This document shows positions 18,213 to 59,351 of a DNA stretch of 64,000 bases, piece by piece. A program made the translations under genes and the position numbers. The stretch comes from Chrysomallon squamiferum (lineage: Eukaryota > Animalia > Mollusca): positions 4,526,001-4,590,000 of the forward strand of contig CM022677.1 in the NCBI GenBank assembly GCA_012295275.1, given 5' to 3'. The notes under the pieces are model-generated. The model searched no databases and was not told where the DNA came from. It was given only the letters and a program-made list of their open reading frames with translations. Each line of letters opens with the position of its first letter. Positions within the stretch are counted from its first letter, which is position 1.

Positions 18213-18339
18213 CTGGTTAATAGTAACAATAGTAATAATAACAACAACAACAACAATAATAAAACAGTAATGATAATAATAATAATGACAGTACATTCAC
18301 CAGTGTGTCCAGTTCACCACTGGTTTAACACTAACAGCA

Positions 18340-19420: not shown

Positions 19421-19725
19421 ACATTTCACTACTATCTAGTTTTGAAACTCACCTTTCACTACTATATAGTTTTGAAACTCACCTTTCACTACAATCTAGT
19501 TTTGAAACTCACCTTTCACTACTATATAGTTTTAAAACTCACCTTTCACTACAATCTAGTTTTAAAACTCACCTTTCACTACAATCTAGTTTTAAAACTC
19601 ACCTTTCACTACAATCTAGTTTTAAAACAAACCTTTCACTACAATCTAGTTTTAAAACAAACCTTTCACTACAATCTAGTTTTAAAACTCACCTTTCACT
19701 ACAATCTAGTTTTAAAACTCACATT
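19421..19725. repeat. 30-bp minisatellite, ~10 copies
   Basis: Unit tctagttttaaaactcacctttcactacaa. On the minus strand most units contain AAG|GTGAGT. Confidence 0.95.
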
Positions 19726-20186
19726 TTCTCATCTTCTGGAAGTCTGGCAGTTCAGTGAATCATCTCACATTATCTCATCTTCTGGAAGTCTGGCAGTTCA
19801 GTGAATTATCTTACATTATCTCATCTTCTGGAAGTCTGGCAGTTCAGTGAATCATCTCACATTTTCTCATCTTCTGGAAGTCTGGCAGTTTTCACAAAAC
19901 AAAGTTCAGTGAATTATCTTACATTATCTCATCTTCTGGAAGTCTAGTTTTGAAAAACAATCTCACCAGTTTTCATCTCACATTAATCTAGTTTTAAAAC
20001 TCACATTATTTCATCTTCTGGAAGTCTGGCAGTTCAGTGAATCATCTCACATTTTCTCATCTTCTGGAAGTCTGGCAGTTCAGTGAATCATCTCACATTT
20101 TCTCATCTTCTGGAAGTCTGGCAGTTCAGTGAATCATCTCACATTTTCTCATCTTCTGGAAGTCTGGCAGTTCAGTGAATCATCTC
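19725..20186. repeat. 46-bp minisatellite derived from the 3' end of a transposase exon
   Basis: Unit atcttctggaagtctggcagttcagtgaatcatctcacatt(t/a)tctc, ~8-9 partly interrupted copies. The minus strand reads MIH*TARLPEDEK. Confidence 0.93.
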
Positions 20187-22970: not shown

Positions 22971-22974
22971 CTCA

Positions 22975-23575
22975 ACCTACTCCCAATGAGCTGATTTTGG
23001 TTGTTACACACAATTAGACAAGGTGACATCCGACTCATTTCATGGTGGCAGGTCACAATTATAGAACAAAAACCTACTCCCAGTGAGCTGACTTTAACAA
23101 GGTGACATCCAACTCATTTCATGGTGGCAGGTCACAATTATAGAACAAAAACCTACTCCCAATGAGCTGATTTTGGTTGTTACACACAATTAGACAAGGT
23201 GACATCCAACTCATTTCATGGTGGCAGGTCACAATTATAGAACAAAAACCTACTCCCAATGAGCTGATTTTGGTTGTTACACACAATTAGACAAGGTGAC
23301 ATCCAACTCATTTCAAGGTGACATCCAAGGTGACATCCAACTCATTTCATGGTGGCAGGTCACAATTATAGAACAAAACCTACTCCCAATGAGCTGATTT
23401 TGGTTGTTACACACAATTAGACAAGGTGACATCCAACTCATTTCATGGTGGCAGGTCACAATTATAGAACAAAAACCTACTCCCAATGAGCTGATTTTGG
23501 TTGTTACACACAATTAGACAAGGTGACATCCAACTCATTTCATGGTGGCAGGTCACAATTATAGAACAAAAACCA
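22975..23575. repeat. ~97-bp tandem repeat, ~6 copies, at the transposon/host junction
   Basis: Unit aaaaacctactcccaatgagctgattttggttgttacacacaattagacaaggtgacatccaactcatttcatggtggcaggtcacaattatagaac. One copy is shortened. Confidence 0.95.
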
Positions 23576-24530
23576 ACAGTGGTAAAAGAAACAAACAGTA
23601 ACAAGAATGAAAAAATAATTATAATTCTAATATGTATACTTTTCCTGAAAACTTGACATCTCAGTTTTCTGTGATTCCCTGTTACTTAGTCGAAAAAAAT
23701 CAATAAATAAAATACATGTGTCATTAGATATATGTATCATTTAAAGTTTTAAATACCCCAAAAAATCAATATTACTAAAAAGTGATATTTTAATTTTTGT
23801 TATTATTATTATTTTTTTATGAAGATAACATTTTAGAAATGACTCACCAATATCAGTGTCCTGTAAACACTCAAAGTGGTCTTCTGAAACTAACTGAATA
23901 TCATGATCTACATTTTCCAATGGAACTGGGCATCATAACTGTGATTTCCACTGAAAATTAATAACAAGAATCAGAAATTAACAGAATTTTTGTTTTAACA
24001 TAAACAATGATAAGTGATAGATAAACACATTATTCAAATAATAGTAAATTCTGTAAAGGTAATACTGTAATAATTCAAAATATCTGAGATACATTATTCT
24101 ATAATATAATAATAAATGTGCATATGTGTATGTTTTGGTGTGTTTTTTGATTCATTAAGTTATTACCCTTTAGCATTGCTATGATCCAGAATCCATGTTT
24201 TGATGATCTTCTTGTAAAAGTTCTTTTAAACAAAAGGATCAACACCTTTTGGATCCAGCATGTTCATCAGTCAGATGAGACATTCTTCAGGCTGAAAGTT
24301 AAGCAGCAACAAAACAATGTATTAGGAAAGGAAAGATGCGTTTCAAGAATTAAATAAAAATATTGATAACTAGGACAGTATATTTACACTGTAAACAGAT
24401 ACTTTACAGCATCTTAAATAAATATTAACTCAACTGGTCTGACAGAGTACAGCGTTGTATTTGTTGATTTAATAAACACTTACTTCAAGCTGATCACTAA
24501 CTGCACCTGCTAAAATACACCAACTCTAAA
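23557..24530 (-). pseudogene. Inverted dead partial copy of the KASH5/LRMP-like gene at 55.9-56.85 kb
   Basis: The reverse complement aligns by eye, exons and introns, to 55930-56850. The EF-hand-like exon reads PEECLI*LMNMLDPKGVDPFV*KNF, i.e. two stops where the other copy has R and E. Confidence 0.85.
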
Positions 24531-24739
24531 ATAAAGAAGAAATATTTTATTTAAGAACATACACAGCATGTTTTTTACTAGTTTTTCATCTCTTAAAAGG
24601 TAAACTAACTATACAGATAATGAAAAAGAAACCCTGTTTCTAAAATATGGAGTGACACCCTTTTAAACAAGCAACCAAAAATATTTTTCTAATGTACATC
24701 TTTGCACATAGAAAAACAAACACATATAATCTTAGAGTA

Positions 24740-24852
24740 TATCAGGCATGGATCACCTGCTAGATTGTTAAAAAACCTTGTTAGTCCTCTATGCAGGACT
24801 AATCCTTGAACCCAAAAGACGTTGACCATGCACTCTAACCACTGAGCCAGTC
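24740..24852 (-). mobile_element. tRNA-derived SINE head (degenerate)
   Basis: Minus strand TGGCTCAGTGGTTAGAG (A box) followed ~20 nt later by GGGTTCAAG (B-box-like). No tRNA cloverleaf can be completed. Confidence 0.5.
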
Positions 24853-25124
24853 TATCATCACTATAAATTTAACAAAATGAATTAAGTGAATACGTACCGA
24901 GTACAGTTTCATTTATTTAGTTCTAGAGTACTGGTGAATCGCTACTCAGTTTTGTGAAATCTTATGTTTTGTTGTGTTGCTAATGGGTATTTTGTATTTT
25001 GTGACACTTACCTCCCATTACCATACTGATGCTGAATTAACATTAATAAAAATAATAACCGTGCAATGTAAACTGTCTGATGAAATTTAACTCAGATGCA
25101 TTCAGTTAAAGATCCTTTATTGGT

Positions 25125-25595
25125 ATATAAAATACTGACCAGTATATAAGAATCTATTAAAGCCTGAAATCCTCCATTTAAGTAATACAAATACATGTAC
25201 AAAGGTCTGTACACTAAAACTGAATTTTACAAATCCCAATTCTTTGAGTAAAATACATTTCATAAATTTGTATAATAAAAGATTTAATACAATTTTGGCC
25301 ATGCAACATAAATTAAAAACTCTCACAAAACAATTTCTGCTTCCTAACTGTTCAGCAGCTGTCCTGTCTCTGTCAGTCTGATCATTTCAAACCAGAAGAA
25401 CAGCTCTGTGAGAAAGGCTACAAGGTTTTATTGTCTACCATCTCGCGTGTACAGGATATCCTCCTGGCTGCTGGCAGTTCCAGACTAGCAAAAATAATGT
25501 TAAACATTTTAAAGGACTCATAAAATATAATGCTTCTTCTTTTAATTTAAAATACAGAAATTTACACCAAAATAATCACATCTATATGAATGGAT

Positions 25596-25651
<56 letters not shown>

Positions 25652-25790
25652 TCAGAGAAAGAATTGTACATGATATAAACTGTAATGTGTGTCATAAAAT
25701 ATTAATGTATTACAAAATGCAATTTCCTACATTAAATTAAATCAAACTTCATTAGGTTTAGAATAATAAGAAATACATAAGAAATACACA
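25125..25790 (-). pseudogene. Duplicate of the 6.19-7.17 kb exon/intron segment
   Basis: Same-orientation similarity, e.g. aaatactgacca..agcctgaaatc, gctgtcctgtctctgtcagt..ccagaagaac..gctctg and aaacttcattag..tagaataat, shared with 6197-7165. The middle portion is deleted. Confidence 0.8.
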
Positions 25791-26395
25791 GAACTGACGT
25801 AATTCAGACCTTGTACCTTGATAGGTTTATAATGTTTATAATGCATATGATGAAGCAAATAATGTCAACCATTAGCTGTAGATACAGAGGTAAATAGTTT
25901 TGGATGTCATAGTATTAGTCATATTATTTGCATTTAAGACTCCTATGGCATATATACACAAACTTAAAAAATATCATTTCAGTAGTGTTTTGTACAATAG
26001 TGTATTAATATCTCTTGTGATTATGATTACAAATTATTTATGTGTGTGTGTGAATGTGTGTGTTAAATATTATTATAACAAATAATTTTATTAATATTTT
26101 ACAGTGTCTACATACGAAATAACCTGATCATATTTTTCTTAATTTTTTATTTATCATTACTTGTTTTAGATGTTAAAATACAGCTATATAGATATTTAGG
26201 TTAAATAATATGAAAGCAGTCAATGCCCCACCCATTACAACCTATAATATGGTTAAATAATCATTTAAATATGTTTAATAATGTATAGAATAATAGAGCA
26301 AGTCAGCAATTTAAAAAATAAATCATAAATGAACTGACAGAAAACAACCTGTCAAACAAAATTAGCATATTTTCTTTTAACACTTTTATTAGTTT

Positions 26396-26434
<39 letters not shown>

Positions 26435-26627
26435 TGCGTGTCTTTTGAAAAAAATATAAATAAATAAATAAATAAATAAATCAATAAACCAATAAATTCA
26501 CAAATAATTATTGTTCCGAAATAAGATGGCTGCCATCACTTGGCTTTGACATGTAAATCATAATTAAATAAAACAAAAAAATCTAAGTAATAATAAATAA
26601 TAATACCTGTCTCCTGCACAAAATGAA

Positions 26628-27000
26628 ATGCTTTAAGCAACTTTTTGTTGGATCATTATGCGATTACACCAATTCTGTGTAAAGATTCATCGAACATCAA
26701 ATAAAACAGTAAGCCCGTACAGACCGACAATCATCCCGCATTTATCCGCAAATACAACACTAAAAAAAAAATAATAATAATAACAAAAATAAATAAATAT
26801 AATTCAAAACAAATAAAATAAATAAAGGAAACAACTTTATTAAAATATAATTATGAATTGATGAGTTTTTTTTTTTTTTTTTTTTTTTTTTGTCTTTTGT
26901 TTTGTTTTTAATCTTATTATTAGCCAATCACAAAGCTTAGAACTCACTCTCCATTAAGTTGCTTAGTATTGTCCAGGAATTTACCAATGTTTGATATAGG
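26628..27000 (-). other. Two AG/GT-bounded exon-like segments of unknown gene (stops present)
   Basis: 27000-26947 (PISNIGKFLDNTKQLNG) and 26759-26628 (VVFADKCGMIVGLYGLTVLFDVR*...). Phase-compatible, GC-richer islands. Confidence 0.35.
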
Positions 27001-30209: not shown

Positions 30210-30645
30210 AATAACCCTCTAACTCTAACCCTAACCCTAACCCTACCTTATCACTACCCCTAAATGTAACCCTGTAACTCTAACCCTAACCCTAACCTTA
30301 CCTTATCATTACCCCTAAATGTAACTCTAACCCTAACCCTACCTTACCATTACCCCTAAATGTAACCCTCTAACCCTAACCCTACCTTATCATTACCCCT
30401 AAATGTAACCCTGTAACTCTAACCCTAACCCTGCCTTACCATTACCCCTAACTGTAACCCTGTAACCCTAACCCTAACCCTGACCCCAACCCTAAACCAA
30501 ACCTCAAACTCTCTGAACCTAACCCCAACCCCAAACACTAAACCTTAACCCCCTTTCCTTACCCTTAACAGACCCCTAATCCTAACCCAAACCCTCTAAC
30601 CCAAGCCTAACCCTAAACCTTACCCTTACCCTTACCCCAAACTTA
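30210..30645. repeat. Interstitial telomere-like (TAACCC)n repeat with a ~50-60 bp higher-order unit
   Basis: Runs of taaccc interleaved with ctaccttatcattacccctaaatgtaaccctg. More degenerate toward 30645. Confidence 0.85.
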
Positions 30646-32142
30646 CTATAATTTTATTCAGGAAAGTAAATTGAATTTAAACTTACTAACTTTCCTTAGA
30701 GAGATGGATAGACAGATAAGAAGATATAGTAGATAGATATATATAATAATATTTACTATCTTATTTCCATTGTTACACATTCTTTCTTAGTTTTAATTTT
30801 TTTTAGGACTCTTTAGATATAGTAGTATTACATTTCAACAACTGAAGCTTAAAACATTGTATCTTGGCCAGAAATAGGAGGACTATGTCACCTAAAACAT
30901 TGTGTTATTACTACTGGTATATACAACTCATATCTGTCTCCTATCTTGTAGATCTGATGTTACACTGGATTTCTCCTGAATGTCAGATGAAGTAAGCAAC
31001 ACTGACAGTTACTGTGTTCACTCGTTACCTCTTTGTACTGGAACAAACAAGTTGAAGATAATTATTTAAATAGTTGTAACTATGAGATAACAAAAGCCAG
31101 TGATAACACTGTTTACCTGTAGCACTTTCCATTCATTAACAGCAGTTAACAGAGTATGTTCTTCAGACTGGTAAATGAAGCTTTATCAAACAGTTTTTTA
31201 CTATAAATGTTGAAAAATTAAGACAAGAGTTGGATAGAGAAAAACGCCTTTATTCTTAATTTCACTAAACTATATGAACAAAGAAAAGAACAAAACATTA
31301 TTTTCTTTGTAATTTAAAAACAAAAATTATCATTTTGAATTTCTGGAAAAAAGGGAACATCTACTGGAATAAAAAAATGAGAAAAAAGACCTGAACTTAT
31401 TAAATAAAATGAAATTAGTTTGGAATACGGAGTTAAACAGTGAATAGATTGCTTCATGTTTATCAGCAGCATTACTCTTTAACATGTTTTGAAAGTATAA
31501 TTTAACATTTCAACATGAACTATGTGAAAATTAATGCATATTACTGCTCAGTATTTCTTTAAAAGGTTTATTTAATATTTCACTTCATTTCTGTGAATCT
31601 AAATGTTCGTGTTGTCATCTCAGTTGAGGTGTCACCACAAGAACATGGGCAGGAAATATTTTTTATTGATAATTTCAAGTTAAAATGCCTCAAAGAAAGT
31701 AATGTGTACCAATTATGAGAATTTTCTCTATTTATATGCAAATCAGTTTTTTTAATGTTTCCAGTAGACAGCTGGGTTTTTTGCTGGGTTTTTTTTGTGT
31801 TTTTTTAACTTAAAAATGTGTATGTGTACATGTGAAAGAGCACTAAAATTTTGCTTCTGATTGTATAAAAATGTACTGGTCACCTCAACAGCACCAACCT
31901 TGTACTTTGAACAAAACAAATAAAAATACTATAAATATAAAATACAGTGTAACTACCATCTTCAAATGTCAACTTTTTTTAAAAAAGCGAATAGTAAATA
32001 GTTCACAAACATGCAGAACCTATGTTGTTCAGTAAACAAAGCAAATCCAGATTTGTATCAAACATCTACAAAGAAGAATAAAAATAAAAACTCCTCTGAT
32101 ACATGTTTATCACTCAAAACTGTGTGTATAGATGAAACACAT

Positions 32143-35100
32143 TCACTGCTGAGGGATGCGATGATAAGTTTCGTATTCATACAGAGAAGGTTGTTGAGGG
32201 ATGGAATGATAAGTTTGGTATCCATGTGCTCCAGGATACTGAGGATCTGAAACATAAATACAATGTAAAATCTAAACAATGTCCTTTCAGCTGATTAAAT
32301 GTCTGTATGCTTTTAATACAAATTTGTATATGTCTTTGTCAGGTTAATGTAATTAGTAATTCATATTGTTTTAAGTATTTTATCAACAATAAATTTCTGC
32401 TTAGATGATGTTTATTCATTTTACTTATTAACTAAACATATATCTGAGTAATCAGAAATATGAAAAAATATATTAAAACCAGTTTTCAGGGAAGAGTTGA
32501 ATTGAAAAATACTTTCAGAACTTATTTCAAGTTAAATTTAGACCAGTAAATCTACACTTCACTGATTACTGTTTGTACAGTCATACAATTAAAAAATAAA
32601 TCTACACTTCACTGATTACTGCTTGTACAGTCATACAATTAAAACTAAATCACATCACTGTTATATATCAAATCAGACAGAGCCCTAAAATAAAGTACAC
32701 AGATTAGAAATACATTAACTGCAGGCTAGGATAACCACATGCATCTGAAATTACAGAACATTAATTTTAATTATTTTAAAATAAAAAAATAAAAGAAAAC
32801 GGTCTTTATTAACTGGATTCGAAGATGTTTTAATCTCGAGTACTGATCAGTAATTAATGCTGAAACCATAGGTTAGTAACTATGTTCATATTAATAAATT
32901 TTGATAAACCTGGAAAGCAAAGGAATAAACAAACTGAGATGTACAAAACCCAGTTTCAGGGCAATAGTGAAGTATGTCTTTAAAAGAAGCATAAATAAAT
33001 AAATGATCAGTGTGCAAATGTTACATACATCAAAGAAGTGAGTACTTACTGTTGAGTCTGAGACATGCAAGTGTTACATACATCAAAGAAGTGAGTACTT
33101 ACTGTTGAGTCTGAGACATGCAAGTGTTACATACATCAAAGAAGTGAGTACTTACTGTTGAGTCTGAGACATGCAAGTGTTACATACATCAAAGAAGTGA
33201 GTACTTACTGTTGAGTCTGAGACATGCAAGTGTTACATACACCAAAGAAGTGAGTACTTAGGACTGTTGAGTCTGAGACATGCAAGTGTTACATACATCA
33301 AAGAAGTGAGTACTCACTTCTGCTCACTCCCAGACGTGAAAGGACGTACTCTGCTCCACTGATTTCTGCCTCCTCAATTATGCGACTCAGTTTATGCGAA
33401 CGAATTGTTTTTCTCTGACCTGGAATTGTCACCTGAAAGAGAAGAAGGTTATTTCTTTGTACACAGACAGTGCTTCTTTTATTCGCTTTTTAGTTTAAAA
33501 AATACTGTTTTTACTGTTTGTTTAGAAAGTAAGAAATCAAGGATGTGTACATTATCAGAGAACATACAGCCATCCTCAAGTAGCACCAACCTTGAAAAAG
33601 AACAACTTTCTTTCACCAGCAGCTGTCCTGTGGTTCACAGAATCAAGCTCGTAGACTGGCTTTCCCCACAGATTTTTCTCACACACTTCTTCCAAGAGCT
33701 GTAAAAAAGTTAAAAATCAACTCATTTGAGACTTTCAGTTTGACTGGCAATAGTTATTTTTATAATCCCAAAAGCCAAAGCACCACATCATTTGAGACTT
33801 TCAGTTTGACTGGTAATAGTTATTTTTGTAATCCAAAAACCCAAAGCACCACAAGTGGTGAATATGTAATTAATGACTAAATTTAAAGTTTTTACTGCTC
33901 ATTAGTTCATTAAACCACTGAACTGCTTTAGTTAATACTAGTCTTTGCTTAAAACATTAACAAATATCTACTCCATTGAGTTTTAATTCAGTGGATTCTT
34001 CCAAATCACCAGTATTCCAGTATCACTTATATCTTTTAACTTCAAAAACAGGAGCCATTACTAATACAAAATGTATTGGAAGAAAGTTACCACTTATAAA
34101 TTTGACTGTACTTGCTCATGTTTCTAACAAATAAATCTTTATGTTTCACATTAAATATAGCAAAATGAAACACAGTGAAACAAAGCAATAAAGAAGCAAA
34201 AGGTAAATGAATATAAATTAATTATTAGTAGCTTTTGAAAGAAAAAATAAACAAAAAAGAAAATAAACAATAATAAATAAAAAATAAAATATTTAAGTTA
34301 AATGAAGTTTCAGGATGGTACAATGAAAAAGATGTATATAGTTTCAACTGTCACTGGTAAGAAAAGAATATATTGTTTTCCTCTAAACAAATATTCATCC
34401 TTTTGAATGAGAAAATCTGTTATACCAATAGTAATAATAATAATAATAGTAATAGTAATAGTAATAGTAATAAAAGTAATAAAGTAAATAATAATAATAG
34501 TATAGTAACAGTAATAATAATAATAAAATGCTTTAATAGGCAAGATATTTTAATAAAATAGTAATAGTTTAATTAATAAACTAATTATTAAATGTCTGAC
34601 AAACTGCTTTAGAGGCAGATATTTTAAAATGTGTTTTAACAACTCACTTTTGTCTGTGCCTGATGAAGTAACATAAATATATAAATAAATAGTAGTCACT
34701 GAAATACATTTAAAGCCACAATCTACAGCTGCTATTGTTAAACAGTTACAGTCTTTCTTGGAATTTGTGATTAAATGTTTCCTAGATAAAGGAAAAACAG
34801 AAACTTTTTATTTTTTATTTTTTGTTTAACAACACACTGAATGTATTTTAATCTACACTGATTATAATTTTATTTATTTTATTTTTTGTTTAACAACACA
34901 CTGAATGTATTTAAATCTACACTGATTACAATTCTTTTTGGCTGAAGATTTTACTGATACAGAGATAAAATCTTGGTGCGATCTCATAGACAGGACAGCA
35001 CCTTCCACAGTTTTTCATAAACTCACAGTGTAGATGTGACTGGGATGGAAAATAGCCAAAGGGAGAAACGAGATCATTCAACCTTTAACTTTCCTTCAAC

Positions 35101-38100
35101 AGACTCAGACAAAGCCAGGGATTCCCAACGTGGACCATAGCGCCCCCTGGTGGGCGTTGGTGAGTTACAAGGGGGCGCTGTGAGTCTTTTCTCTATTGGG
35201 GGTGGGCCAAATGCACATAAATGGGCGTTATCTAAAATACATCGTATGACAAATTTAAATATTACTGTGTAAAATAAGCTACAGTTCTATGAATTGTTCA
35301 CACAAGAATAGTAACAAGCAGAAGTAACATTTACTCTTGTATGCAACAATCTCGCTGTGTGAACACAACAATCTCGCTGTGTGAACACAACAATCTCGCT
35401 GTATGAACACAACAATCTCGCTGCATGAACACAACAATCGCGCTGCATGAACACAACAATCTTGCTGTATGAGCGTGTGACGTTGCTGACTGCAGCTCAG
35501 TCAGAGTTGTGCACACGGCTGTGACAGTGTTTTTACTCTGCTCGTGTCAGATCTCAAACTGGGGATCAGGATGAAAGTTCCAAACATAAAAGTGATAAAA
35601 CAAACAACTGTGTGTACTAGGTCACTGAATGGTTGATTTATGTGTGATAATGTGTGATGTTACTGGTCTGTGCCTGCAGAGTGGGTGTCAGTGCTGCTAC
35701 AGTCAACTCTTCAAACTGAAATCTCATAAATCAGTCGCAAACATTAAAATGCAATTTAATTATTTAAACTTTGTTAAAAGTTAAAAATATATTTGGTATG
35801 TTTTAATTACGCGTTCATTTTTTTCCTATCCTATCCTTTAACTTTGTTTAGTTTTTTAAGTTAAAAATACATTTGGTATGTTTTAATGAATTTGGCGTGT
35901 TTTAGTTCGAAGGTTATTGCTTGCAAGTAAGCAGTCGGTTACAATTATTGTCAAACAGTCAAGTTAGTTGGAAGACAACAACTGCAAAGGTTGCTTACAA
36001 CCATTTAATTAACTTAGCCATATTAGAATTCTTCTACTTCAAATATCAAAAAATACACTGTTTATGAAAAAAAATTGTTAATAAAGCGTTTAGTTCAAAT
36101 TAGACATGCTTACTTAAATTGCTATGGTGATATTCTTTGTTTGCCTCTGTTTTACTTATTTTCAGTGAATGTATTTAACAACCCATGATCAAGACTGAAA
36201 GCTCATCAAAATGAAAGTTCAGACAATACAGTATTGAATATCTGAAGTATGGATTTATCAGTTCTGCAAATAATAAGCAACGACTGATGAGCTTCATTGT
36301 GAGAAAGTGCTCTTCAACGAGGCGATGAAACCATCCAAGCTTTCCAAGCTCTTTAAAAAGATGAATCCTCACAAAGAGAGTTTGTCAGGCTTTCCGAGCA
36401 CTTTAAAAAGATGAATCCTCACAAAGAGAGTGTCAGACTTTCACAACAGCCACACCATCGTCTCTTGTGGCAAAACAATCACAAAAAAAGCGACGATGGA
36501 CTTATTTGTTCATACAACATCTCCAAAATGACTGCTAGGTCAGGAAAGCCGCGTTCAATTGGAGAGGGAAACAGGAATAGGTGAAATGCCACTGCCGGCA
36601 TGCCACAAAGAAACTAAACCAGCAATAAACACACCTTTCCTGATCAAAACAGAGTTACCACCCTTCAAGCCACAGCAAACGACCACTACAAACAACACAC
36701 GCACATCTACACCAATGGATCCAAAAACCCAGACAATGGAAAAGTAGGATTCGCCTTCATAGCCCAAGATCACACAAACAAACCCACAGGCAAACAATTC
36801 AGCCGCATCAGAAACCACCTTTCAGTATACACGGCCGACTCAGCAGAATACAACATCTACACGAGGACATACAACACAACAACAAACACACAGTCATCAG
36901 ACAGTCTAAGTTCTGTCATCTCCATACAATCCAGACATTGCTGACCAGGGGAATACAAAACACAACAACAACAAACAAACACAGTCATCTTCTCAGACAG
37001 TCTAAGTTCTGTCATCTCCATACAATCCAGACATTCCAGCAGACCAGACCTACTCAGCAGAATACAACATCTACACGAGGACATACAACACAACAACAAA
37101 CACACAGTCATCTTCTCAGACAGTCTAAGTTCTGTCATCTCCATACAATCCAGACATTCCAGCAGACCAGGCCTACTCAGCAGAATACAACATCTACACA
37201 AGGACATACAACACAACAAACAACTAATCGAGTTGCTCCCAGCACATGTCGGCATCATCGGCAACGAACTCGCCGACCACTACACCAAAGAGTCACTCAG
37301 CATTAAAGACGAAGACATCTGCACCGACATATACTACTGAATAAACGAAATTGTCTCCATCGCTGCCAAACATTACGACAAACAGTGGCAAAACGAATGG
37401 AACAACACCAAAAACAAATGGCACTTGAACATCAAACCACTCACCAAAACACTCAAAATCACACTCGCCAACAAACTACACAACAACAATCTCACCAAAG
37501 CTAGAACTGGTTACTCGACTAACTTAAACGCAATTCGATACAAACATAACATCACCACATCACCCAACTGCAGTTGTGGACTCTCAGAAACCATGAAACA
37601 CTACTTGTTTCACTGTCAGAATTTCACCAAGGAAAGACAAGCACTATGCAATACATTGGAGGAACTAAAAATCGAGTTCACGCTCCAACACATCTTGGCA
37701 CCAAACACGAAAGACAGAGAGTTAGTCCTCGCTGCAGTAACAAATTACATTCTCAAAACAAAAACAAAACACAAACTTTAAACTTTTTTTTTTTTTGACA
37801 CGAAAACAAATAACAATTATATAAATCTATTGACTTGCGGATTGGTTGGTTGAACAGCTAGTGGATCTACGGATGGATCGGCTGATTCACAAATCAATTT
37901 CAATGGCCAATTAAATTAATAATTAAAAACAAGGATAAACGTACTATACATACCCATTTTCAGACAATACTAACCCGGTTATGGATTTTTTTTTTTTTTT
38001 TTTTTTTTTTTCAATTTAATTTTTTTTATAATTTAATTAATTGAAATTTTTTTTTTCTCCATATTCTTAGTCCTAGCTGCAGGATTTATAACATATTTTA

Positions 38101-39768
38101 AAAAAAAAAAAAAAAATGTAAATAAGTTAACTACATTTATGTTCTTATTTGTTTTAGTTGCAGGTGTTTATAATATCTTTTAAAACAATAAAAAGACCAT
38201 TGGCAAAAAAAAAAAAAAATAACAGGTTTGGACTACATGGACCAGAAGGAAGCAGCCAAAAAGAAACAACAGCAGCAGCAGCGAAGAGCAGAACAAGCAG
38301 GACGCAAACAACATGGAGCTGGTGATGACTGGGAGACTGTGCCGGAGACATTAAAGACCATTTTGAAAATAACAAATAAATTGTTGTTATTTATGAATTA
38401 TTTTGTTTTGTGTTATTGCAGGATAAACAAATACATTCAGATTATTTCACTAGTGAAAATATTTAACATTTAGCATGTCCTGTGTTTAAAAAAGAAGTAA
38501 ATAAGTGACATGTCTCACATTGACTGGAGTCTTTCTGGAGTCTTGAATTCTACCAGCAACTTCTTGGTGAACACTTGTAAAAAGAATAAAAAATAAAAAT
38601 ACTTTTAAAACTGTGTGTATGAAGACAAAACAAACAAGTGAGAGTGTTAAATGAAAACTGTGAAGACAAAACAAAAAAGCAGCAGTAAGTGATCACGTGA
38701 CACTAACAAATCTTTCACTAACTAAACTGTTGGAAAATTTGTGATTCTCTTTTAAAAACTGTATTATCAGGTTAAGTTATGCTATATACTGATTCTGTTT
38801 CATTTAAACTGCAAGCACAAACCTGTATTTAAAGATTCTTTTAGCATTCTTACAAAAAAAGTTTTGATATTTGATGAATCCAGTTTTAAATAGCTTGATG
38901 ATGAAAATAATACAACATAAACCAGAAGGATATCAAAATTAAACATGAAATTATTGACCTCGTCATACTTGTTACAGCTGCAGAAACTACATTTCTGTCT
39001 GAAAACAATCTAGACTTTGCTGATGGTCAGAAAGGATGTCTTCTCTACAGTTTACACTGCATACAACTTATCATTGCATTTGCAAAGCTTAAATTAATAA
39101 AAACACGTCTAAGTCACAAGAGAGATTAACTCACTTTGGTTTAATTAGTACAGAAGAAAGAAATCCTCTCATTTTAGGTGAAAAAAAGAAAAAGTTTTAA
39201 AAAACATTTCTTACAAGAGAGTTCATTTCAAACACTGAAATTACAAATAATCAATGTAGTTAATTTATATTTGATTTGAATAAAAGATTTATTTGTCAAT
39301 TTTAATCTATTTTTTAAAGATTTAAAACATGATTCTTTTTCACATTTCCTAGTTTTGGGGGTTTTTTGGTTGGGGTGGGGGAGAGGAGGGGACATAAAAT
39401 TAGGGAGTTAGCTGTGTGCATCATCAAACTTATGCACAACACTACATCTGTCAGTGAACATTTGTGTTTTATAACCAAATCAGTTCTGTCAGATAGTTTT
39501 AGCAATAAACTAGCCTAAAAATATGAAGCTAAAATTTCTTTCCTTAATTAGAATCAGAAAGTTAGCCTTTTATGGGCCTCAGTACTTAGATATAACTTCC
39601 TTTTCACAACCTGTCAGATTGCTTCCCTTTAATTTGTATTTTACTCAACTTATTCTAAAACGCTTTATATTAATTTTCCAAATATTTTTTTTATTTTCTG
39701 ACGACTAAAATAATGAAAAATAAAAAATAAAAATTTAGAAAAAAATAAAAATTTAATACTTACGACAT
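32143..39768 (-). CDS. Stand-alone A1CF/RBM47/RBM46/DND1-type dsRNA-binding-motif protein, ~128 aa, 5 coding exons
   Basis: Coding exons 39768-39764 (ATG TC|gtaagt), 38573-38519, 33698-33591, 33432-33318 and 32246-32143. All are GT-AG and phase-consistent (2,0,0,1) with no stops: MSVHQEVAGRIQDSRKTPVNLLEEVCEKNLWGKPVYELDSVNHRTAAGERKLFFFKVTIPGQRKTIRSHKLSRIIEEAEISGAEYVLSRLGVSRNPQYPGAHGYQTYHSIPQQPSLYEYETYHRIPQQ*. Matches the A1CF dsRBM pattern ILEEICQKNNWGQPVYQL..LFLYK.TIP..KLS..+EA...AEY.L..LG. Confidence 0.8.
33020..33315. repeat. 53-bp tandem repeat, ~5.5 copies, starting at a splice donor
   Basis: Unit gttacatacatcaaagaagtgagtacttactgttgagtctgagacatgcaagt. It abuts the donor of exon 33432-33318. 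Confidence 0.95.
33318..33432 (-). CDS. dsRBM exon 2 (VTIPGQRKTIRSHKLSRIIEEAEISGAEYVLSRLGVSR)
   Basis: 115 nt, ctttcag|...|gtgagt, open. Confidence 0.88.
33591..33698 (-). CDS. dsRBM exon 1 (LLEEVCEKNLWGKPVYEL...KLFFFK)
   Basis: 108 nt, tttttacag|...|gttggt, open. Confidence 0.88.
34960..35100. mobile_element. Degenerate SINE body (gastropod-type, from recall)
   Basis: cata-gacaggacagcac-ttccacag...ctgggatggaaaatagccaaaggg resembles the abundant 'cacagacaggatagcacataccacgg...gaaatagcccaatggg' SINE segment I recall from snail genomes. A similar trace lies at ~1515-1580. Confidence 0.35.
35116..36566 (+). mobile_element. hAT Buster/Charlie element, 5' part
   Basis: Left end CAGGGATTCCCAAC..GCGCCCCC..GGGGGCGC. 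Transposase remnant YLKYGFISSANNKQRLM..EKVLFNEAMKPSKL..KMNPHK and DDGLICSYNISKMTARSGKPRSIGE (cf. ASYNISLLIAKSGKPHTIGE). Internal 22-bp repeat at 35342-35475. Confidence 0.85.
36567..37930 (+). mobile_element. 3' end of an RNase H-containing non-LTR retrotransposon (I/Nimb-like)
   Basis: HIYTNGSK..GKVGFAF..HLSVYTA, VIFSDSLSSVISI, PAHVGIIGNELAD, KQWQNEWN, RTG and the CCHC knuckle CSCGLSETMKHYLFHC, then a short 3' UTR. Contains a ~123-bp in-frame tandem duplication at 36837-37225. Confidence 0.9.
38780..39200 (+). mobile_element. hAT (ZMYM1/Tip100-like) C-terminal dimerisation-domain fragment
   Basis: AFAKLKLIKTRL..SQERLTHFGLISTE (cf. SFSKLKLIKTYLRSTMSQERLxxLxLISIE). Confidence 0.65.
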
Positions 39769-40239
39769 GACTCTTATTTCAGGTTATATCACTTTCTGTT
39801 GATTCCGTTTTACTGAAATAATTTAACATTAAAAATACATTAACAAACTTTCATTATTACAAAAGGTCAAAGCATAGGACATGGTAATACAAATTTATTA
39901 TAATATATTATACTTTATTAAATGTATGTCGAAAATAAATAGTGTACGTTAACAGGTTTAAGGTTAAAATATTATTTCGAAGACACTTTTATTATTTATC
40001 CATCTCAAACTGTAAAATCTGAAATAACTTATTTAAACAAAAAATAAAAATAAAAAAATAAGAAAAAAACTATATTAATGTAATAAATATAATTAGCACT
40101 TTTAAAGTTGTAATGTTGGTGATTAATTTTGTTTTACTGAAATTTTCCTCGCCCGTTTTTTATTAATTCATCTATTAAAAGACCCCAAAAGAGACATTCA
40201 TTGATTTACCACGGATACAAAAGTTAAAACTGAACATGT

Positions 40240-40400
40240 TTTGGAAAATCATCAGCGAGATTTCAGCTCAAAAAGTAGTTTTTCAACCTACCTTCGATCG
40301 ATGCAGTTATTTGCGCGCCAGTATCGCCATGAGACTTTTTCGCACATGCGCAGTTGACACACTCGTGGGGATTTCGTCAGCTGTTACCATAAGTTAAACA
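40240..40400 (-). promoter_or_regulatory. CpG-rich promoter / non-coding first exon of the dsRBM gene
   Basis: Local CpG cluster in CpG-poor DNA. NRF1-like tcgcacatgcgca (~40340-40352), E2F-like tttgcgcgcca (~40310-40320) and MYB-like cagttg. Donor AAG|GTAGGT at 40292, facing the acceptor at ~39813. Confidence 0.6.
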
Positions 40401-40586
40401 AGGCTTTTAACCTACTAATTAGATTAATAATTAATTTCTGTACAAAATGATCTGAATAAAATGTCCGATTGCAATATACATATTACATACATACCATGGC
40501 CGTAACTACACTGAGGAAAAATAATTTTGTATCTGTATAAATGAACTATCTATTGTTTTACAGATTTTTTTTGTTTCTATTAATTA

Positions 40587-41392
40587 CCGTATATACTTGT
40601 GTATAAGTCGAATTTTTGGGAGACTATATTAAGGTAATATTTTGGGGGTCGACTTATACATAGGTAATGCTTTTGTAGCTGTTGCTGAAGAGTCGCCATT
40701 TTGACTGTTTTTTGCTACGGGATGCATTTAAAATAATCGCGGTCTTTCAGCTTTTCAAAAATATAATTTTATCGTATAAAAAATTTTGAAAAATTAAATA
40801 ACAAAACCAAATATGAATGTAAAACATGATATTCTTCCGTTTAATGACATAAAAATAAATTTTAAAGCGAGAAAACCGTCAGTACGGCGTTATGCCTTAC
40901 GGCGTCTTGCAATGATCTAGGAATGCAGACTTCTCTGCCAAATTGCACTAAATATCGGTCCTAATTTCATAAACAAAACCGACTTGTTTAATTGTAAAGA
41001 ATTTGGTGAAATAATATTGCAATCGTCATTAATATCCACTACCGACAAATTTTGTAAATCATAGAACGGCTAAATATAACGGTAAGTTAGGATTCCATGT
41101 TAGACCTATTACATTAAAGAGATACTATTTATGATACATTTAGGCTATAGCTCGTGTAATACATGCATTTACGTTATGGTATGTTCGTGCAAGTTACAGC
41201 TCGTGCAAGTTATGTTACAGTAGGCGTACAATGTAGGCCTTCGTGGCACTGTCACACTGGTCTAAAAATAGTGACGGTGCCTGGAATCTACAGTCGACTT
41301 ATACACAAGTAATACCTAAAATGACGCAATTTTTGGTCTTAAAATACACATCGACTTATACATAAGGTCGCCTTGTACACAAGTATATACGG
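40587..41392. mobile_element. 806-bp non-autonomous Tc1/mariner (pogo/Tc2-type) MITE
   Basis: TIRs ccgtatatacttgtgtataagtcga and (revcomp) ccgtatatacttgtgtacaaggcga, 23/25 identical. TA on both flanks (40585-6, 41393-4). Internal tcgacttatac repeats. Confidence 0.9.
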
Positions 41393-41517
41393 TAATTTAT
41401 TATTATTATTATTTCTTCTTAAGGGAACTATTAACTTTTTCTTTTATTATTATTATTATTTCACTGAATCATTCTTTTTTTTAAATTTAATTTATTAATA
41501 CATTAGAATTGTCTATA

Positions 41518-42060: not shown

Positions 42061-43982
42061 TATTAATAAAATCTATGTTCAGCGTAACAACATATTTGAG
42101 GTAATTTGACGGCAGATGGCGTCATGAAAATAATCATATGTCGGTTATTTAATCAACTAATTAATTTATTTTTATTTAATTATTTTGTAGTGGTTTATTT
42201 GCTTTTTGTTTTGTTTGTTATTGTGTTTGCTATTTGTTTATTTATTTGTTTATTTGTTTATTTATTTATTTATTTATTGTTATGTGCTTGTATTGTACTA
42301 AGTAATTTTTTTGAATTTATTAAATGAAATGTTTGTGTCTGTTTATTTGTTTGAGTCAAAGTTTATATTTTGTGTGGTTGTGTTGTATTAAGTTATGTTT
42401 TTGAATTTATTTATTAGATGTTATTTATTCCAAAGACTGAGGAATATTTTTATTAGAAATGGTCACAAATGAAATGTTTTTTTTTTCTGAATCTTGATTT
42501 GATGTCCTAATGTTCACAGTGATGTTCATATTTCCACTTATTTATTAATTTGTTTGTTTCTTATTTACTTATCTCAATATCTCAATTTTCCTCCTAACTA
42601 AAACAGTTTTTTATTACTTACAAACTAATAATAAAAATAAAATAAAAAAAAAAAAAAAAGAAGAAGAAGAAGAAGAAAAACAAAATAAAAACATCCAGGA
42701 TTCATGCAACAGATTAGAAATAAAAAAGATTTTCATATGAAATAAATTTTACTGATCAGTCATTATTGAACTGAGGTGTTCCTTTTTACATAATTATTTA
42801 TAAAATAAAAAAAGAAAGTAAGGAAGAAGAAGAAGAAATAAAAACACCCAGGTATGATGTAGTGGATTAAAAAAAGAAGAAGAAGAAGAAGAAGATTTAT
42901 GAATGAAATACATTTTACTGATAATTCATTCCTGAACTGGTGTCATCCTTTTTACAACTTTTGTCACCGTAGGCTGCAGTTTTGTGTTTTGAACATGATT
43001 TTTTTTTTTTTTTTTTTAACTTATGATTTCTGAGTTAAAGTGCATTTTGCACCTGTGCGGTTACAGAGAAGTACAGCAAATCAAGGTAATATTTTTCAAG
43101 ATAAAAATCATTTGTTCTGATAATCATCATTATGAAAAGTGATTTTCATCATCCCACAATTTAATGATTTTATTTCTGCTGGCAAACGTTTCAAACTGTC
43201 GTCAACTTGTTCTAATTTCATTTACATTTAAACATATACAATGTTTTTTAAAGTTTTCTGCATTTCATTTGGCAACGTAAAGAGTTATAAACTAATGAAG
43301 AAGTTTAAATGACTTTTACTTCAAAATAAAAATCAAGACAAAATCGACTGAATGCTTCATGCAAGCAAGATATTGATATGAACATCTCGTTATTTTCAAC
43401 ACAACTGTGACGCTGAAATAAAACAGCAATGGTTTCCCAGACGTTTTTGGAAGAGTATATTTAAATGAAAAATGTCTGCTACCTGTTTATCTTGTCTGTC
43501 GTGTTGAATTGGACTCAGTTTGTTTTGTTAAACATTAATATGCAGTTTCACATGCACGCATGTAGCACTCACTTTACACGCACAGAAACGCAAAAAACAC
43601 GAACACGAACACGCACAGAGATTAATAATAATCAGAAGAAGAAGAAGAAGAACGTATAGATTCTCTTCAAGGTCATCGAGAAACGTGTTTGTTACGCAGC
43701 CGAGTGTTAAAATTTTATTTTTTAATTAATCGAAATCTAATAAAAATTTTATTCTTAAATTCGTTAAGCTACTTGTCTCCCTCTCTCCCTTTCTCCATCA
43801 TTGTTTTTTCGAACGAAGTACTTCAGTTTATTCTTTCAATCCATGCAAAAATAAATAACTTACTAAATAAATAAATAAAATAAAATAAAATAAAATAAAA
43901 GAAATCGAGTGAAGATATAAAATGTATTACGTATTTCATTGAAGTGTTTCATTAACAACAACAACTAATAAATAAATCAATA

Positions 43983-45559: not shown

Positions 45560-48555
45560 TGTCTGTCTGCCAACCTATCTACCTAGCCATCCACCTGTCT
45601 TTTCTCTCTCTACCTGTACATCACTCTGTCTGCCAACCTATCTACCTAGCCATCCACCTGTCTTTTTCTCTCTACCTGTACATCACTCTGTCTGCCAACC
45701 TATCTACCTAGCCATCCACCTGTCTTTTCTCTCTCTACCTGTACATCACTCTGTCTGCCAACCTATCTACCTAGCCATCCACCTGTCTTTTCTCTCTACC
45801 TGTACATCACTCTGTCTGCCAACCTATCTACCTAGCCATCCACCTGTCTTTTCTCTCTCTACCTGTACATCACTCTGTCTGCCAACCTATCTACCTAGCC
45901 ATCCACCTGTCTTTTCTCTCTACCTGTACATCACTCTGTCTGCCAACCTATCTACCTAGCCATCCACCTGTCTTTTCTCTCTACCTGTACATCACTCTGT
46001 CTGCCAACCTATCTACCTAGCCATCCACCTGTCTTTTTCTCTACCTGTACATCACTCTGTCTGCCAACCTATCTACCTAGCCATCCACCTGTCTTTTTCT
46101 CTACCTCACCTGTACATCACTCTGTCTGCCAACCTATCTACCTAGCCATCCACCTGTCTTTTCTCTCTCTACCTGTACATCACTCTGTCTGCCAACCTAT
46201 CTACCTAGCCATCCACCTGTCTTTTCTCTCTCTACCTGTACATCACTCTGTCTGCCAACCTATCTACCTAGCCATCCACCTGTCTTTTCTCTCTCTACCT
46301 GTACATCACTCTGTCTGCCAACCTATCTACCTAGCCATCCACCTGTCTTTTCTCTCTCTACCTGTACATCACTCTGTCTGCCTATCTACCTAGCCATCCA
46401 CCTGTCTTTTCTCTCTACCTGTACATCACTCTGTCTGCCAACCTATCTACCTAGCCATCCACCTGTCTTTTCTCTCTACCTGTACATCACTCTGTCTGCC
46501 AACCTATCTACCTAGCCATCCACCTGTCTTTTCTCTCTACCTGTACATCACTCTGTCTGCCTGCCTATCTACCTAGCCATCCACCTGTCTTTTTCTCTCT
46601 ACCTGTACATCACTCTGTCTGCCAACCTATCTACCTAGCCATCCACCTGTCTTTTCTCTCTCTACCTGTACATCACTCTGTCTGCCAACCTATCTACCTA
46701 GCCATCCACCTGTCTTTTCTCTCTACCTCTACATCACTCTGTCTGTCAGCCTATCTACCTAGCCATCCACCTGTCTTTTCTCTCTACCTGTACATCACTC
46801 TGTCTCTTGCCCATCTACCAGCCATCCACCTACATCACTCTGTCTGCCAACCTATCTACCTAGCCATCCACCTGTCTTTTCTCTCTCTACCTGTACATCA
46901 CTCTGTCTGCCAACCTATCTACCTAGCCATCCACCTGTCTTTTTCTCTCTACCTGTACATCACTCTGTCTGCCAACCTATCTACCTAGCCATCCACCTGT
47001 CTTTTTCTCTCTACCTGTACATCACTCTGTCTGCCAACCTATCTACCTAGCCATCCACCTGTCTTTCTCTCTCTACCTGTACATCACTCTGTCTGCCAAC
47101 CTATCTACCTAGCCATCCACCTGTCTTTTTCTCTACCTGTACATCACTCTGTCTGCCAACCTATCTACCTAGCCATCCACCTGTCTTTTTCTCTCTACCT
47201 GTACATCACTCTGTCTGCCAACCTATCTACCTAGCCATCCACCTGTCTTTTTTCTCCACCTGTCTTTTTCTCTCTACCTGTACATCACTCTGTCTGCCAA
47301 CCTATCTACCTAGCCATCCACCTGTCTTTTCTCTCTCTACCTGTACATCACTCTGTCTGCCAACCTATCTACCTAGCCATCCACCTGTCTTTTCTCTCTC
47401 TACCTGTACATCACTCTGTCTGCCAACCTATCTACCTAGCCATCCACCTGTCTTTTCTCTCTACCTGTACATCACTCTGTCTGCCAACCTATCTACCTAG
47501 CTATCCACCTGTCTTTTCTCTCTACCTGTACATCACTCTGTCTGCCAACCTATCTACCTAGCCATCCACCTGTCTTTTCTCTCTCTACCTGTACATCACT
47601 CTGTCTGCCAACCTATCTACCTAGCCATCCACCTGTCTTTTCTCTCTACCTGTACATCACTCTGTCTGCCAACCTATCTACCTAGCCATCCACCTGTCTT
47701 TTCTCTCTACCTGTACATCACTCTGTCTGCCAACCTATCTACCTAGCTATCCACCTGTCTTTTCTCTCTACCTGTACATCACTCTGTCTGCCAACCTATC
47801 TACCTAGCCATCCACCTGTCTTTTCTCTCTCTACCTGTACATCACTCTGTCTGCCAACCTATCTACCTAGCTATCCACCTGTCTTTTCTCTCTACCTGTA
47901 CATCACTCTGTCTGCCAACCTATCTACCTAGCCATCCACCTGTCTTTTCTCTCTCTACCTGTACATCACTCTGTCTGCCAACCTATCTACCTAGCCATCC
48001 ACCTGTCTTTTTCTCTCTACCTGCCTGTCTGCCAACCTATCTACCTAGCCATCCACCTGTCTTTTTCTCTACCTGTCATCACCTGCCAACCTATCTACCT
48101 ACATCCACCTGTCTTTTTCTCTCTACCTGTACATCACTCTGTCTGCCAACCTATCTACCTAGCCATCCACCTGTCTTTTTCTCTCTACCTGTACATCACT
48201 CTGTCTGCCAACCTATCTACCTAGCCATCCACCTGTCTTTTCTCTCTACCTGTACATCACTCTGTCTGCCAACCTATCTACCTAGCCATCCACCTGTCTT
48301 TTTTTCTCTCTACCTGTACATCACTCTGTCTGCCTGCCTATCTACCTAGCTATCCACCTGTCTTTTTCTCTGTCCACATCACCTGCCACCTGTCTTTTCT
48401 CTCTACCTCCACCTGTCTGCCAACCTATCTACCTAGCTATCCACCTGTCTTTTCTCTCTCTACCTGTACATCACTCTGTCTGCCAACCTATCTACCTAGC
48501 TATCCACCTGTCTTTTCTCTCTCTACCTGTACATCACTCTGCCTGCCTGCCTATC
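45560..48555. repeat. ~61-bp pyrimidine-rich minisatellite, ~48 copies
   Basis: Unit ctacctgtacatcactctgtctgccaacctatctacctagccatccacctgtcttttctct, with variable (ct)n/(t)n. Confidence 0.97.
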
Positions 48556-48599
48556 TATCTATCATCAACGCAAACACCCTTTACCTGAATATGTTCTCA

Positions 48600-48830
48600 A
48601 TATGTCCCAACATGCACTTTGCTACAAAAGAAATATGAGAAAAAAAAGAACAGTACAATAGTTTTTACAGTGGAGTATTATGATGTAAGACAAGCAACTG
48701 TGAGATTGTGACCTAGTTGCCATGATTTGTTTGGAGTTATATGAAGAAACCAAGAGCAGTGATCAATATGTATTTGTGGATAGTCAAATAATCAGAGAGG
48801 CATACACTTCTGCACCTTATATCTGCTGTG
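48600..48830 (+). mobile_element. Possible Ulp1-like cysteine-protease remnant of a transposon
   Basis: TVEYYDV.KQL*DCDLVAMICLEL...DQYVF.DSQIIREA resembles VxxQxNxxDCGLFA..A.EL..G.DP...FDQxxMRxHL. Degenerate. Confidence 0.3.
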
Positions 48831-51059: not shown

Positions 51060-52680
51060 TCTTTCACACAGACATGTCTGTAACACTCATCCTTTCACAC
51101 AGACGTGTCTGTAACACTCATCCTTTCACACAGACGTGTCTGTAACACTCATCCTTTCACACAGACGTGTCTGGAACACTCATCCTTTCACACAGACACG
51201 TCTGTAACACTCATCCTTTCACACAGACGTGTCTGTAACACTCATCCTTTCACACAGACGTGTCTGTAACACTCATCCTTTCACACAGACGTGTCTGTAA
51301 CACTCATCATTTCACACAGACGTGTCTGTAACACTCATCCTTTCACACAGACGTGTCTGTAACACTCATCCATTTCACACAGACGTGTCTGTAACACTCA
51401 TCCTTTCACACAGACACGTCTGTAACACTCATCCTTTCACACAGACACGTCTGGAACACTCATCATTTCACACAGACGTGTCTGTAACACTCATCCTTTC
51501 ACACAGACATGTCTGTAACACGCATCCTTTCACACAGACGTGTCTGTAACACTCATCCTTTCACACAGACGTGTCTGTAACACTCATCCTTTCACACAGA
51601 CGTGTCTGTAACACTCATCCTTTCACAGAGACACGTCTGTAACACGCATCCTTTCACACAGACGTGTCTGGAACACTCATCCTTTCACACAGACGTGTCT
51701 GTAACACTCATCCTTTCACACAGACACGTCTGTAACACTCATCCTTTCACACAGACACGTCTGTAACACTCATCCTTTCACACAGACACGTCTGTAACAC
51801 TCATCCTTTCACACAGACGTGTCTGTAACACTCATCCTTTCACACAGACGTGTCTGTAACACTCATCCTTTCACACAGACACGTCTGTAACACTCATCCT
51901 TTCACAGAGACACGTCTGTAACACTCATCCTTTCACAGAGACACGTCTGTAACACTCATCCTTTCACACAGACGTTCTGGAACACTCATCATTTCACACA
52001 GACGTGTCTGGAACACTCATCATTTCACACAGACGTGTCTGTAACACTCATCCTTTCACACAGACGTGTCTGGAACACTCATCCTTTCACACAGACGTGT
52101 CTGTAACACTCATCATTTCACACAGACGTGTCTGGAACACTCATCCTTTCACACAGACGTGTCTGGAACACTCATCATTTCACACAGACACGTCTGTAAC
52201 ACGCATCCTTTCACACAGACGTGTCTGGAACACTCATCATTTCACACAGACACGTCTGTAACACTCATCCTTTCACACAGACGTGTCTGGAACACTCATC
52301 ATTTCACACAGACGTGTCTGTAACACTCATCCTTTCACACAGACGTGTCTGTAACACTCATCCTTTCACACAGACGTGTCTGTAACACTCATCCTTTCAC
52401 ACAGACGTGTCTGTAACACTCATCCTTTCACACAGACGTGTCTGTAACACTCATCCTTTCACACAGACACGTCTGTAACACTCATCCTTTCACACAGACG
52501 TGTCTGTAACACTCATCCTTTCACACAGACGTGTCTGTAACACTCATCCTTTCACACAGACGTGTCTGTAACACTCATCCTTTCACACAGACGTGTCTGT
52601 AACACTCATCCTTTCACACAGACACGTCTGTAACACTCATCCTTTCACACAGACGTGTCTGTAACACTCATCCTTTCACA
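51060..52680. repeat. 31-bp minisatellite, ~52 copies, with an internal quasi-palindrome
   Basis: Unit cacagacgtgtctgtaacactcatcctttca, with variants -gacacgtc-, -gacatgtc-, -tggaac- and -catcattt-. Confidence 0.97.
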
Positions 52681-53149
52681 TTTACATACATACCCTCTCT
52701 TCTACTTTCTGACCTGTTGCCTCTCTGTCAGTTTATCTATCTCTCTCTCTGTCCATCTGTCCATTGATCCATTTCTATTTCTCTAACTATATATACCTAT
52801 ATATACCTACCGACTTACTAATCTACCAGTTTATCTCATCTGTCTTTTTCTTATCTTATTATTCATCCATTTAAATCCACCAGTAACCATCAGTAACCAT
52901 CTATCCATCTGTCTATATAATATGTGTATGTATACGTACATACACATATTCTCGCTAGCATACAAATACTACTTTTTCTCACACGCAACACACATACACA
53001 CACAAACTCACATACACACCATATACCCAACATAAACACACTTTTATTTATACACTCATGTATATATGCTACAAGGAAATTTGTATAATTCCAGAAAAAT
53101 ATATATATCTATATATATAATGTCTGACTGGCAGTTCAGTGACAGCGAA

Positions 53150-54667: not shown

Positions 54668-54859
54668 TTCAGTTTTAAAATCTAAACAATGATCGTGATC
54701 GTTGATAGGTTTTGCATAATGCTCTTCTCTAAATGGTGACCGTGTACCTTCGTAAAAATCAGATGATGATTGAAAATTAAAAAAATTCAGCGAAAACAGT
54801 TCGTGTGGTTTCTTGCCATTCTCAGTTCTGAATCTTTATTATTAATTACATTATTTCCG

Positions 54860-59319: not shown

Positions 59320-59351
<32 letters not shown>

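Follow-up and report, generated by a model that had tools for sequence, protein, structure and literature searches.

The gene and its 5′ end

We analysed a stretch of 64,000 nt from the genome of Chrysomallon squamiferum (contig CM022677.1, positions 4,526,001 to 4,590,000; hereafter the window, to whose positions all coordinates refer). Its minus strand carries, between 40400 and 32143, a predicted intron-bearing gene for a product of 128 amino acids with a stand-alone double-stranded RNA-binding motif (dsRBM) of the type found in A1CF, RBM46 and DND1, and with none of the RNA recognition motifs (RRMs) of those proteins. The parts of the gene, all on the minus strand, are the following.

40292..40400, minus: candidate first exon and promoter, CpG-rich, with NRF1-like and E2F-like motifs
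39764..39812, minus: candidate start exon, with ATG 39768 and the phase-2 donor GTAAGT; one of three options
38519..38573, minus: exon 3, 55 nt of coding sequence ending in phase 0, with the residues K.PV at its end
33591..33698, minus: dsRBM exon a, alpha1-beta1-beta2 as mapped onto the model of a relative
33318..33432, minus: dsRBM exon b, beta3-alpha2, ending in phase 1
32143..32246, minus: last coding exon, with an inherited Tyr/Gln/Pro tail and a 34-nt direct repeat
31254..32142, minus: likely 3′-untranslated region, with AATAAA/ATTAAA hexamers at 31756, 31667, 31576 and 31254

The five introns (junctions 40292>39812, 39764>38573, 38519>33698, 33591>33432 and 33318>32246) are all GT-AG and phase-compatible. 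The frame runs for 128 codons without a stop from the ATG at 39768 to a TGA ending at 32143, and a TAA lies in frame six codons upstream of this ATG. Splice-site and frame checks thus confirmed what an earlier sequence-only reading had described, and neither stops nor frameshifts nor broken splice sites, the lesions expected of an unprocessed pseudogene, were found in the modelled exons. All scans and searches with the spliced product were done exon by exon.

The 5′ end is the weak part of the model, and the N-terminus of the protein is not fixed, because neither exon 1 nor exon 2 is backed by homology, the only match of exon 3 is non-significant, and three start exons are phase-compatible: exon 1 with ATG 40347, the exon with ATG 39768, and one with an ATG 38 nt 5′ of a strong donor at 39135. 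The sequence-only reading had placed a non-coding first exon in a CpG/NRF1/E2F-like promoter. Promoter-like features do occur there: the 200-bp interval at 40201 holds 11 CpG, where the 99th percentile is 10, and consensus patterns for NRF1-like (40352) and E2F-like (40320) motifs each match once in the 64 kb. The non-coding status of exon 1 fared less well, since as drawn it contains ATGs at 40390, 40347 and 40330. From ATG 40347 the frame stays open as far as the phase-2 donor, and the protein could begin there were exon 2 skipped. The proposal of a newly gained start exon is similarly ambiguous among the three candidates, and the product is RRM-less under every one of them. An element resembling a miniature inverted-repeat transposable element (40579..41400, no strand assigned), with 40-nt terminal inverted repeats (85%) and sub-terminal repeats inside, lies upstream of this promoter region at a distance of about 180 nt. 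A second CpG-rich 200-bp interval, at 43551-43750, holds 12 CpG and has no assigned gene.

Sequence words of the interval 31500-41000 were present at 7-24% in four RNA runs of one study and at 47% in a fifth run of unclear kind. Spliced mRNA would be expected to contribute about 9-11% (arithmetic from exon lengths and poly(A) hexamers), and intronic debris of long interspersed nuclear elements (LINEs) could equal that, so we take these counts as no evidence either way. Intron 3 contains decayed LINE-like debris (36618..37781, plus strand), whose RNase H match is weak and below the cut-off (E 0.0066). A 53-nt tandem repeat (33013..33333, minus strand) begins at the exon-5 donor and repeats GTAAGT donor-like sites; read-through from exon 5 would meet a stop after six codons and give a tail-less dsRBM.

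Homology of the dsRBM and descent of the gene

The assignment of the domain rests on several searches. Exon a alone clears the Pfam DND1_DSRM (PF14709) cut-off with 27.5 against 25.7 bits (E 4e-6), as had been anticipated, whereas the stretch with exon b alone gave no DND1_DSRM match in the Pfam scan. By tblastn both exons are matched by 13/13 full-length relatives, which match nothing else in the window at E <0.05, and a family hidden Markov model recovers them at E 1e-12 and 6e-8; after these, the best of the 3527 six-frame open reading frames (ORFs) reaches E 5.4. These relatives form our reference set of full-length RRM + dsRBM proteins (P0008 and P0015-P0026; a sponge, eight named molluscs, a brachiopod and three further records), taken from a profile search that returned 14 proteins at E <= 1e-20 among 7984 scored. 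P0014, the sole short protein of the 14, is probably a mis-called genomic fragment rather than an RRM-less orthologue. A full-length A1CF-like frame also runs uninterrupted through positions 76-1698 of a metagenome contig (L002), which is either a transcript or an intronless copy.

Does the same arrangement exist elsewhere? The sequence-only reading had proposed a search for RRM-less orthologues, and none turned up, in searches that are a weak test for short lineage-specific proteins. The profile search is weak in this respect by virtue of its cut-off. A phmmer search of 1.84 billion representatives with the exon-a stretch gave four matches, of which three are gene calls of a single exon in relatives, at 50-58% identity, and the fourth, P0002, was dropped as a repeat artefact. 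In a homologue search with the same stretch among proteins of 82-2000 aa none of five candidates scored, which is weak evidence; a PDB sequence search gave no match; and the ESM Atlas gave no usable match with exon a and no RRM-less cluster at >=0.8 with the Gigantopelta dsRBM. Literature searches, judged by titles and the opening lines of abstracts and likewise weak for such proteins, brought up no paper about an RRM-less gene of the A1CF/RBM46/DND1 family.

The absence of RRMs, the central claim of the sequence-only reading, was borne out. None of 206 minus-strand ORFs (>=28 codons, 33790-64000) matched an RRM in Pfam; these are what remained of 251 after 45 tandem-array or low-complexity ORFs were dropped. 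The best hit of an RRM query in the window had E 0.93, against about 1e-22 in the control loci of relatives, in which dsRBM and RRM3 exons are no more than 5 kb apart. When an RRM exon was planted and decayed, it was recovered in 22/30 trials at d = 0.2, in 10/30 at 0.3 and in 2/30 at 0.4. Because exons at d = 0.3-0.4 were mostly missed, what is excluded is RRM exons that are intact or lightly decayed and within the window; heavily decayed ones, or exons beyond 64000, are not covered.

The exon structure points to the origin of the gene. Its first dsRBM exon has the same phase-0 borders in the loci of three relatives (L007, L010 and L011). A cassette exon before the dsRBM is skipped in Lingula and Mercenaria isoforms and is absent from 3/3 Gigantopelta isoforms, and the exon after the dsRBM is skipped in Liolophura and Mercenaria isoforms; each skip gives the join seen in the window. 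The last exon matches the C-terminus of the protein of Gigantopelta aegis (11/22 identical, E 3e-4), and the tail scores 66 against the Gigantopelta tail, a value reached in 0/1000 shuffles, whereas 11 other relatives score 20-33 (Lottia, P0018, was excluded because its record stops after the dsRBM). The sequence-only reading had described a Tyr/Gln/Pro tail with an internal repeat. The repeat is real, its 34-nt copies being 85% identical, spaced by 45 nt and in frame, and it is absent from the Gigantopelta protein; the tail itself is the last exon of the parent. These ancestral exon borders and the join to the last exon identify the gene as a partial, intron-bearing copy, made at the genomic level, of the 3′ part of an A1CF/RBM46-like gene. 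The proposal of a partial duplicate without RRMs is in this way supported by dsRBM homology, exon joins and RRM absence alike.

At its 5′ side the duplicate keeps little of the parent. The end of exon 3 aligns with the end of the RGG-linker exon of relatives (K.PV), a match that is not significant by shuffling; RGG repeats are absent from the gene, so that at most the last few residues of the linker exon were kept. We considered exon 3 as an ancestral exon and rejected this, and its acceptor is probably new, because L005, L006 and L010, loci of three relatives, each carry the linker in one long exon.

How does the gene compare with known systems? The closest relatives are lophotrochozoan A1CF/RBM46-like proteins (hnRNPR-like), above all that of Gigantopelta aegis (XP_041365782.1, P0017), which shares the DND1_DSRM-type dsRBM. 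The gene also has the dsRBM exon borders of relatives' genes, a homologous last exon and, like the three Gigantopelta isoforms, no cassette exon before the dsRBM. It differs from the Gigantopelta relative in having no RRMs, RGG linker or middle exon, in a dsRBM that is only 49% identical and more basic, in the replacement of the last region-3 Lys by Glu, and in the duplicated tail segment. A1CF, RBM46 and DND1 are listed among the hnRNPR-like family (PMC12006756). The vertebrate proteins have a dsRBM of the same family, PF14709, which in DND1 lacks some canonical RNA contacts (PMC9537309), and they choose targets through tandem RRMs, absent from the window gene. As to the RRM + dsRBM layout that had been ascribed to four proteins, the portions of PMC9537309 drawn on here name DND1, RBM46 and A1CF; RBM47 is not among them. 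Shared intron positions and a homologous last exon speak for descent from a gene of this type, and the C-terminal DND1-type dsRBM is there, while the tandem RRMs and the RGG-rich linker of invertebrate members are missing. Because the tandem RRMs define the subfamily, the gene is, on its sequence features, a derivative and not a member.

Divergence and altered surface

The dsRBM is strongly diverged. Its identity to the eight named molluscs is 42-49%, compared with 54-90% among these molluscs and 46-53% between them and the sponge; to Gigantopelta it is 49%, against 58-74% for ten of eleven other relatives. In per-exon trees the end branches of the window copy are the longest of the set (2.16 and 1.67; the medians are 0.25 and 0.16), and the copy falls in no supported clade. 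Given that the tail, although fast-evolving, is Gigantopelta-like and that the dsRBM sits on a long branch, the data are most simply read as descent from a close parent with fast change since. The same picture would arise if a paralogue that had already diverged were copied recently.

The changes are not spread evenly. The consensus is kept at 21/26 highly conserved, 12/28 intermediate and 3/20 variable columns, and 16/19 invariant columns are retained. Neutral simulation from eight proxy parents requires d = 0.15-0.25 and gives this retention with P 0.003-0.058. The open frame bears on the same question. With an indel rate taken from a decayed neighbour pair (16 indels, 14 of them not multiples of three, per 145 substitutions), the simulated probability of a lesion-free neutral copy falls from 1.2e-5 at d = 0.15 to 2.7e-7 at d = 0.2. 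These values suggest that a neutrally decaying copy would hardly ever keep its frame intact, unless the gene is a young copy of an already diverged parent.

The charge has changed as well. Lys and Arg number 13 in the window dsRBM, against 5-6 in 13/13 relatives (post hoc P 0.0007-0.016); the net charge is +3, against -1 to -3 in 13/13 relatives; and charged residues amount to 23, against 12-13. Eight basic residues have been gained at columns where relatives are rarely basic, and an invariant His is gone. By our own alignment of the region-3 register to the start of helix 2, the last basic residue of this region, Lys or Arg in 13/13 relatives, is Glu in the window copy. Of the KKxAK motif, whose lysines are required for canonical dsRNA binding (PMC12724517, PMC5716075), relatives keep the final basic residue only, and the window copy does not show the pattern of a Type A dsRNA-binding domain (dsRBD). 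The near-fixed composition of the 13 relatives (5-6 Lys/Arg, 7-8 Asp/Glu) hints in its own right at a conserved, slightly acidic surface.

What could such a product do? Our leading reading, held tentatively and with slightly less than even confidence, is that of a selected protein-coding gene whose product would be a free, repurposed dsRBM adaptor and not an RNA-targeting regulator like its parent. The duplication may have broken in or near the RGG-linker exon and acquired an upstream CpG promoter and start exon, and the symmetric middle exon would have been lost, or is left out in splicing as in natural isoforms of relatives. Thereafter selection would have kept the frame and the most conserved positions of the fold while the surface changed. 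Without RRMs the product could not select AU-rich targets, and without the KKxAK lysines it is predicted to lack canonical dsRNA binding; it would reach ribonucleoproteins (RNPs) through its new basic surface, through protein partners, or both, with the duplicated Tyr/Gln tail as a putative disordered interaction segment. APOBEC1 is a vertebrate enzyme. The link to APOBEC1 made in the sequence-only reading does not carry over, and no such role is expected of the product, because the interaction of A1CF with APOBEC1 requires all three RRMs (PMC11439182). A more specific version, that of a lineage-specific gastropod gene in which selection kept the free dsRBM folded, turned its surface from slightly acidic to basic and made of the effector-recruiting accessory domain an independent RNP or germline regulator under a cell-cycle-type promoter, is conceivable and to us less likely than not.

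Neighbourhood and competing explanations

The fragments of genes around the dsRBM gene are decayed, with stops or frameshifts, which agrees with its description as a lesion-free gene among decayed neighbours. One intron-bearing gene is present in partial copies at 54850-64000 (plus strand), 23557-26800 (minus strand) and 6046-7164. Its exon at 56122-56246 has a weak EF-hand_9 match, below the cut-off (E 0.011), and we take it to be KASH5/LRMP-like; the copies at 56 and 24 kb differ at 16.7% of sites, and the 24-kb copy has stops and a frameshift. The plus-strand copy at 55-64 kb was considered as an intact neighbour and rejected, with two in-frame stops near 59160. Decayed exons of a receptor tyrosine kinase, presumably EGFR-like, lie at 17600-18215 on the minus strand (PK_Tyr_Ser-Thr, E 1e-7; stops and a frameshift). 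About 1.5 kb downstream of the dsRBM gene, a degenerate TTAGGG telomere-like tract (30220-30640) may be the relic of a former chromosome end or of a repair site. There are five large tandem arrays (13532-15125, 19411-20186, 22974-23577, 45560-48600 and 51060-52700), and transposon-like coding debris on both strands at 8900-13500 and 15100-16100, where three ORFs tested gave no Pfam match.

Several points weigh against a selected gene. Splicing and expression are predictions. The many partial, intron-bearing gene copies nearby raise the prior for a junk fragment. The parents in our simulations were proxies from other species, and the model parameters were assumptions; one of the eight site-class tests was non-significant (P 0.058), and hydrophobic columns are kept at 22/25 against about 21 under neutrality (P 0.36-0.46). 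The three lost invariant columns (His to Asp, Leu to Phe and Ala to Gly) compare with 0-2 lost by relatives in leave-one-out tests. At d = 0.02 the probability of a lesion-free neutral copy is 0.2. The failure to find an RRM-less orthologue counts on the same side, and the dsRBD fold was predicted for a relative, P0003, and not for the window copy: Foldseek leads from that model to dsRBDs, and the window dsRBM exons align with P0003 gap-free at 37/74 identical positions.

Many of these points come together in the strongest alternative, which we consider unlikely and yet worth serious weight: a young non-functional duplicate of a fast-evolving paralogue, lesion-free so far, with a selection signature inherited from its source. 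Such a copy would be in keeping with the several intron-bearing partial duplicates of the window and with the neutral hydrophobic columns; at 2-5% divergence it would be intact by chance in 20% to 2% of cases; and exons 1 and 2 may be chance matches, given that 31/914 GT sites in 14 kb reach 7/9 of the consensus. It requires, however, an unseen source that is both long-branched in the dsRBM and Gigantopelta-like in the tail, and the homologue search among proteins of 82-2000 aa held no near-identical protein (weak evidence, as noted). Against a recent origin, too, RGG repeats and middle exon are gone in frame, and the copies of the tail repeat differ by 15%.

A dominant-negative microProtein, a free dsRBM that would compete with the full-length paralogue for effector partners, is improbable, and we prefer repurposing to such mimicry because the dsRNA-binding lysines are missing and basic residues have been gained. 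Some points favour it. In DND1 the RRMs select the target, and the dsRBD, needed for regulation and not for binding some targets, is a proposed recruiter of effectors (PMC9537309). Type B dsRBDs (dsRBD3 of TRBP, PACT and Loqs, dsRBD5 of Staufen) lack the region-3 lysines and bind proteins, which makes protein binding plausible here (PMC5716075); they are modules of multi-dsRBD proteins, whereas the window domain stands alone and has gained positive charge, and no close kinship was found. The likeness of the gene model to microProteins (PMC9638782, PMC4807768) is one of build, by its size (about 128 aa), single domain and multi-domain ancestry, and 16 of the 19 invariant residues are in place. 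A competitor that sequesters the partners of its parent should, however, keep the parent's surface. Here neither the invariant His nor the conserved Lys/Arg remains, there are eight new basic residues, the charge is flipped and the dsRBM sits on the longest branch of the set, which argues against faithful mimicry and weakens the dominant-negative role once suggested for this gene.

Least probable is that the exons close an ordinary A1CF-like gene with long introns, with RRM exons beyond 64000 or on another contig and the CpG exon an internal promoter or unrelated: only about 25 kb are visible upstream of exon 3, and strongly decayed RRM exons mostly escaped our search, but the RGG linker is absent although it lies 1.4-1.7 kb 5′ of the dsRBM exon in full-length relatives (L006, L010), RRM3 would be expected nearby as in relatives' loci, about 65% identity to molluscs would be expected of an orthologue and not the observed 45% or so, and 55-64 kb is taken up by a decayed gene on the opposite strand.

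A selected, repurposed gene would matter beyond this locus. The role of the dsRBM in DND1, RBM46 and A1CF is an open question: in the account of PMC9537309 the domain is required for regulation without making canonical RNA contacts, and that of DND1 was not obtained in soluble form. Should it prove to be recent junk, the locus is one more ordinary fragment where duplications abound. If the stand-alone dsRBM is a real gene product, it would be a natural, ready construct for work on structure and partners, and a clean case of an accessory domain that became a gene.

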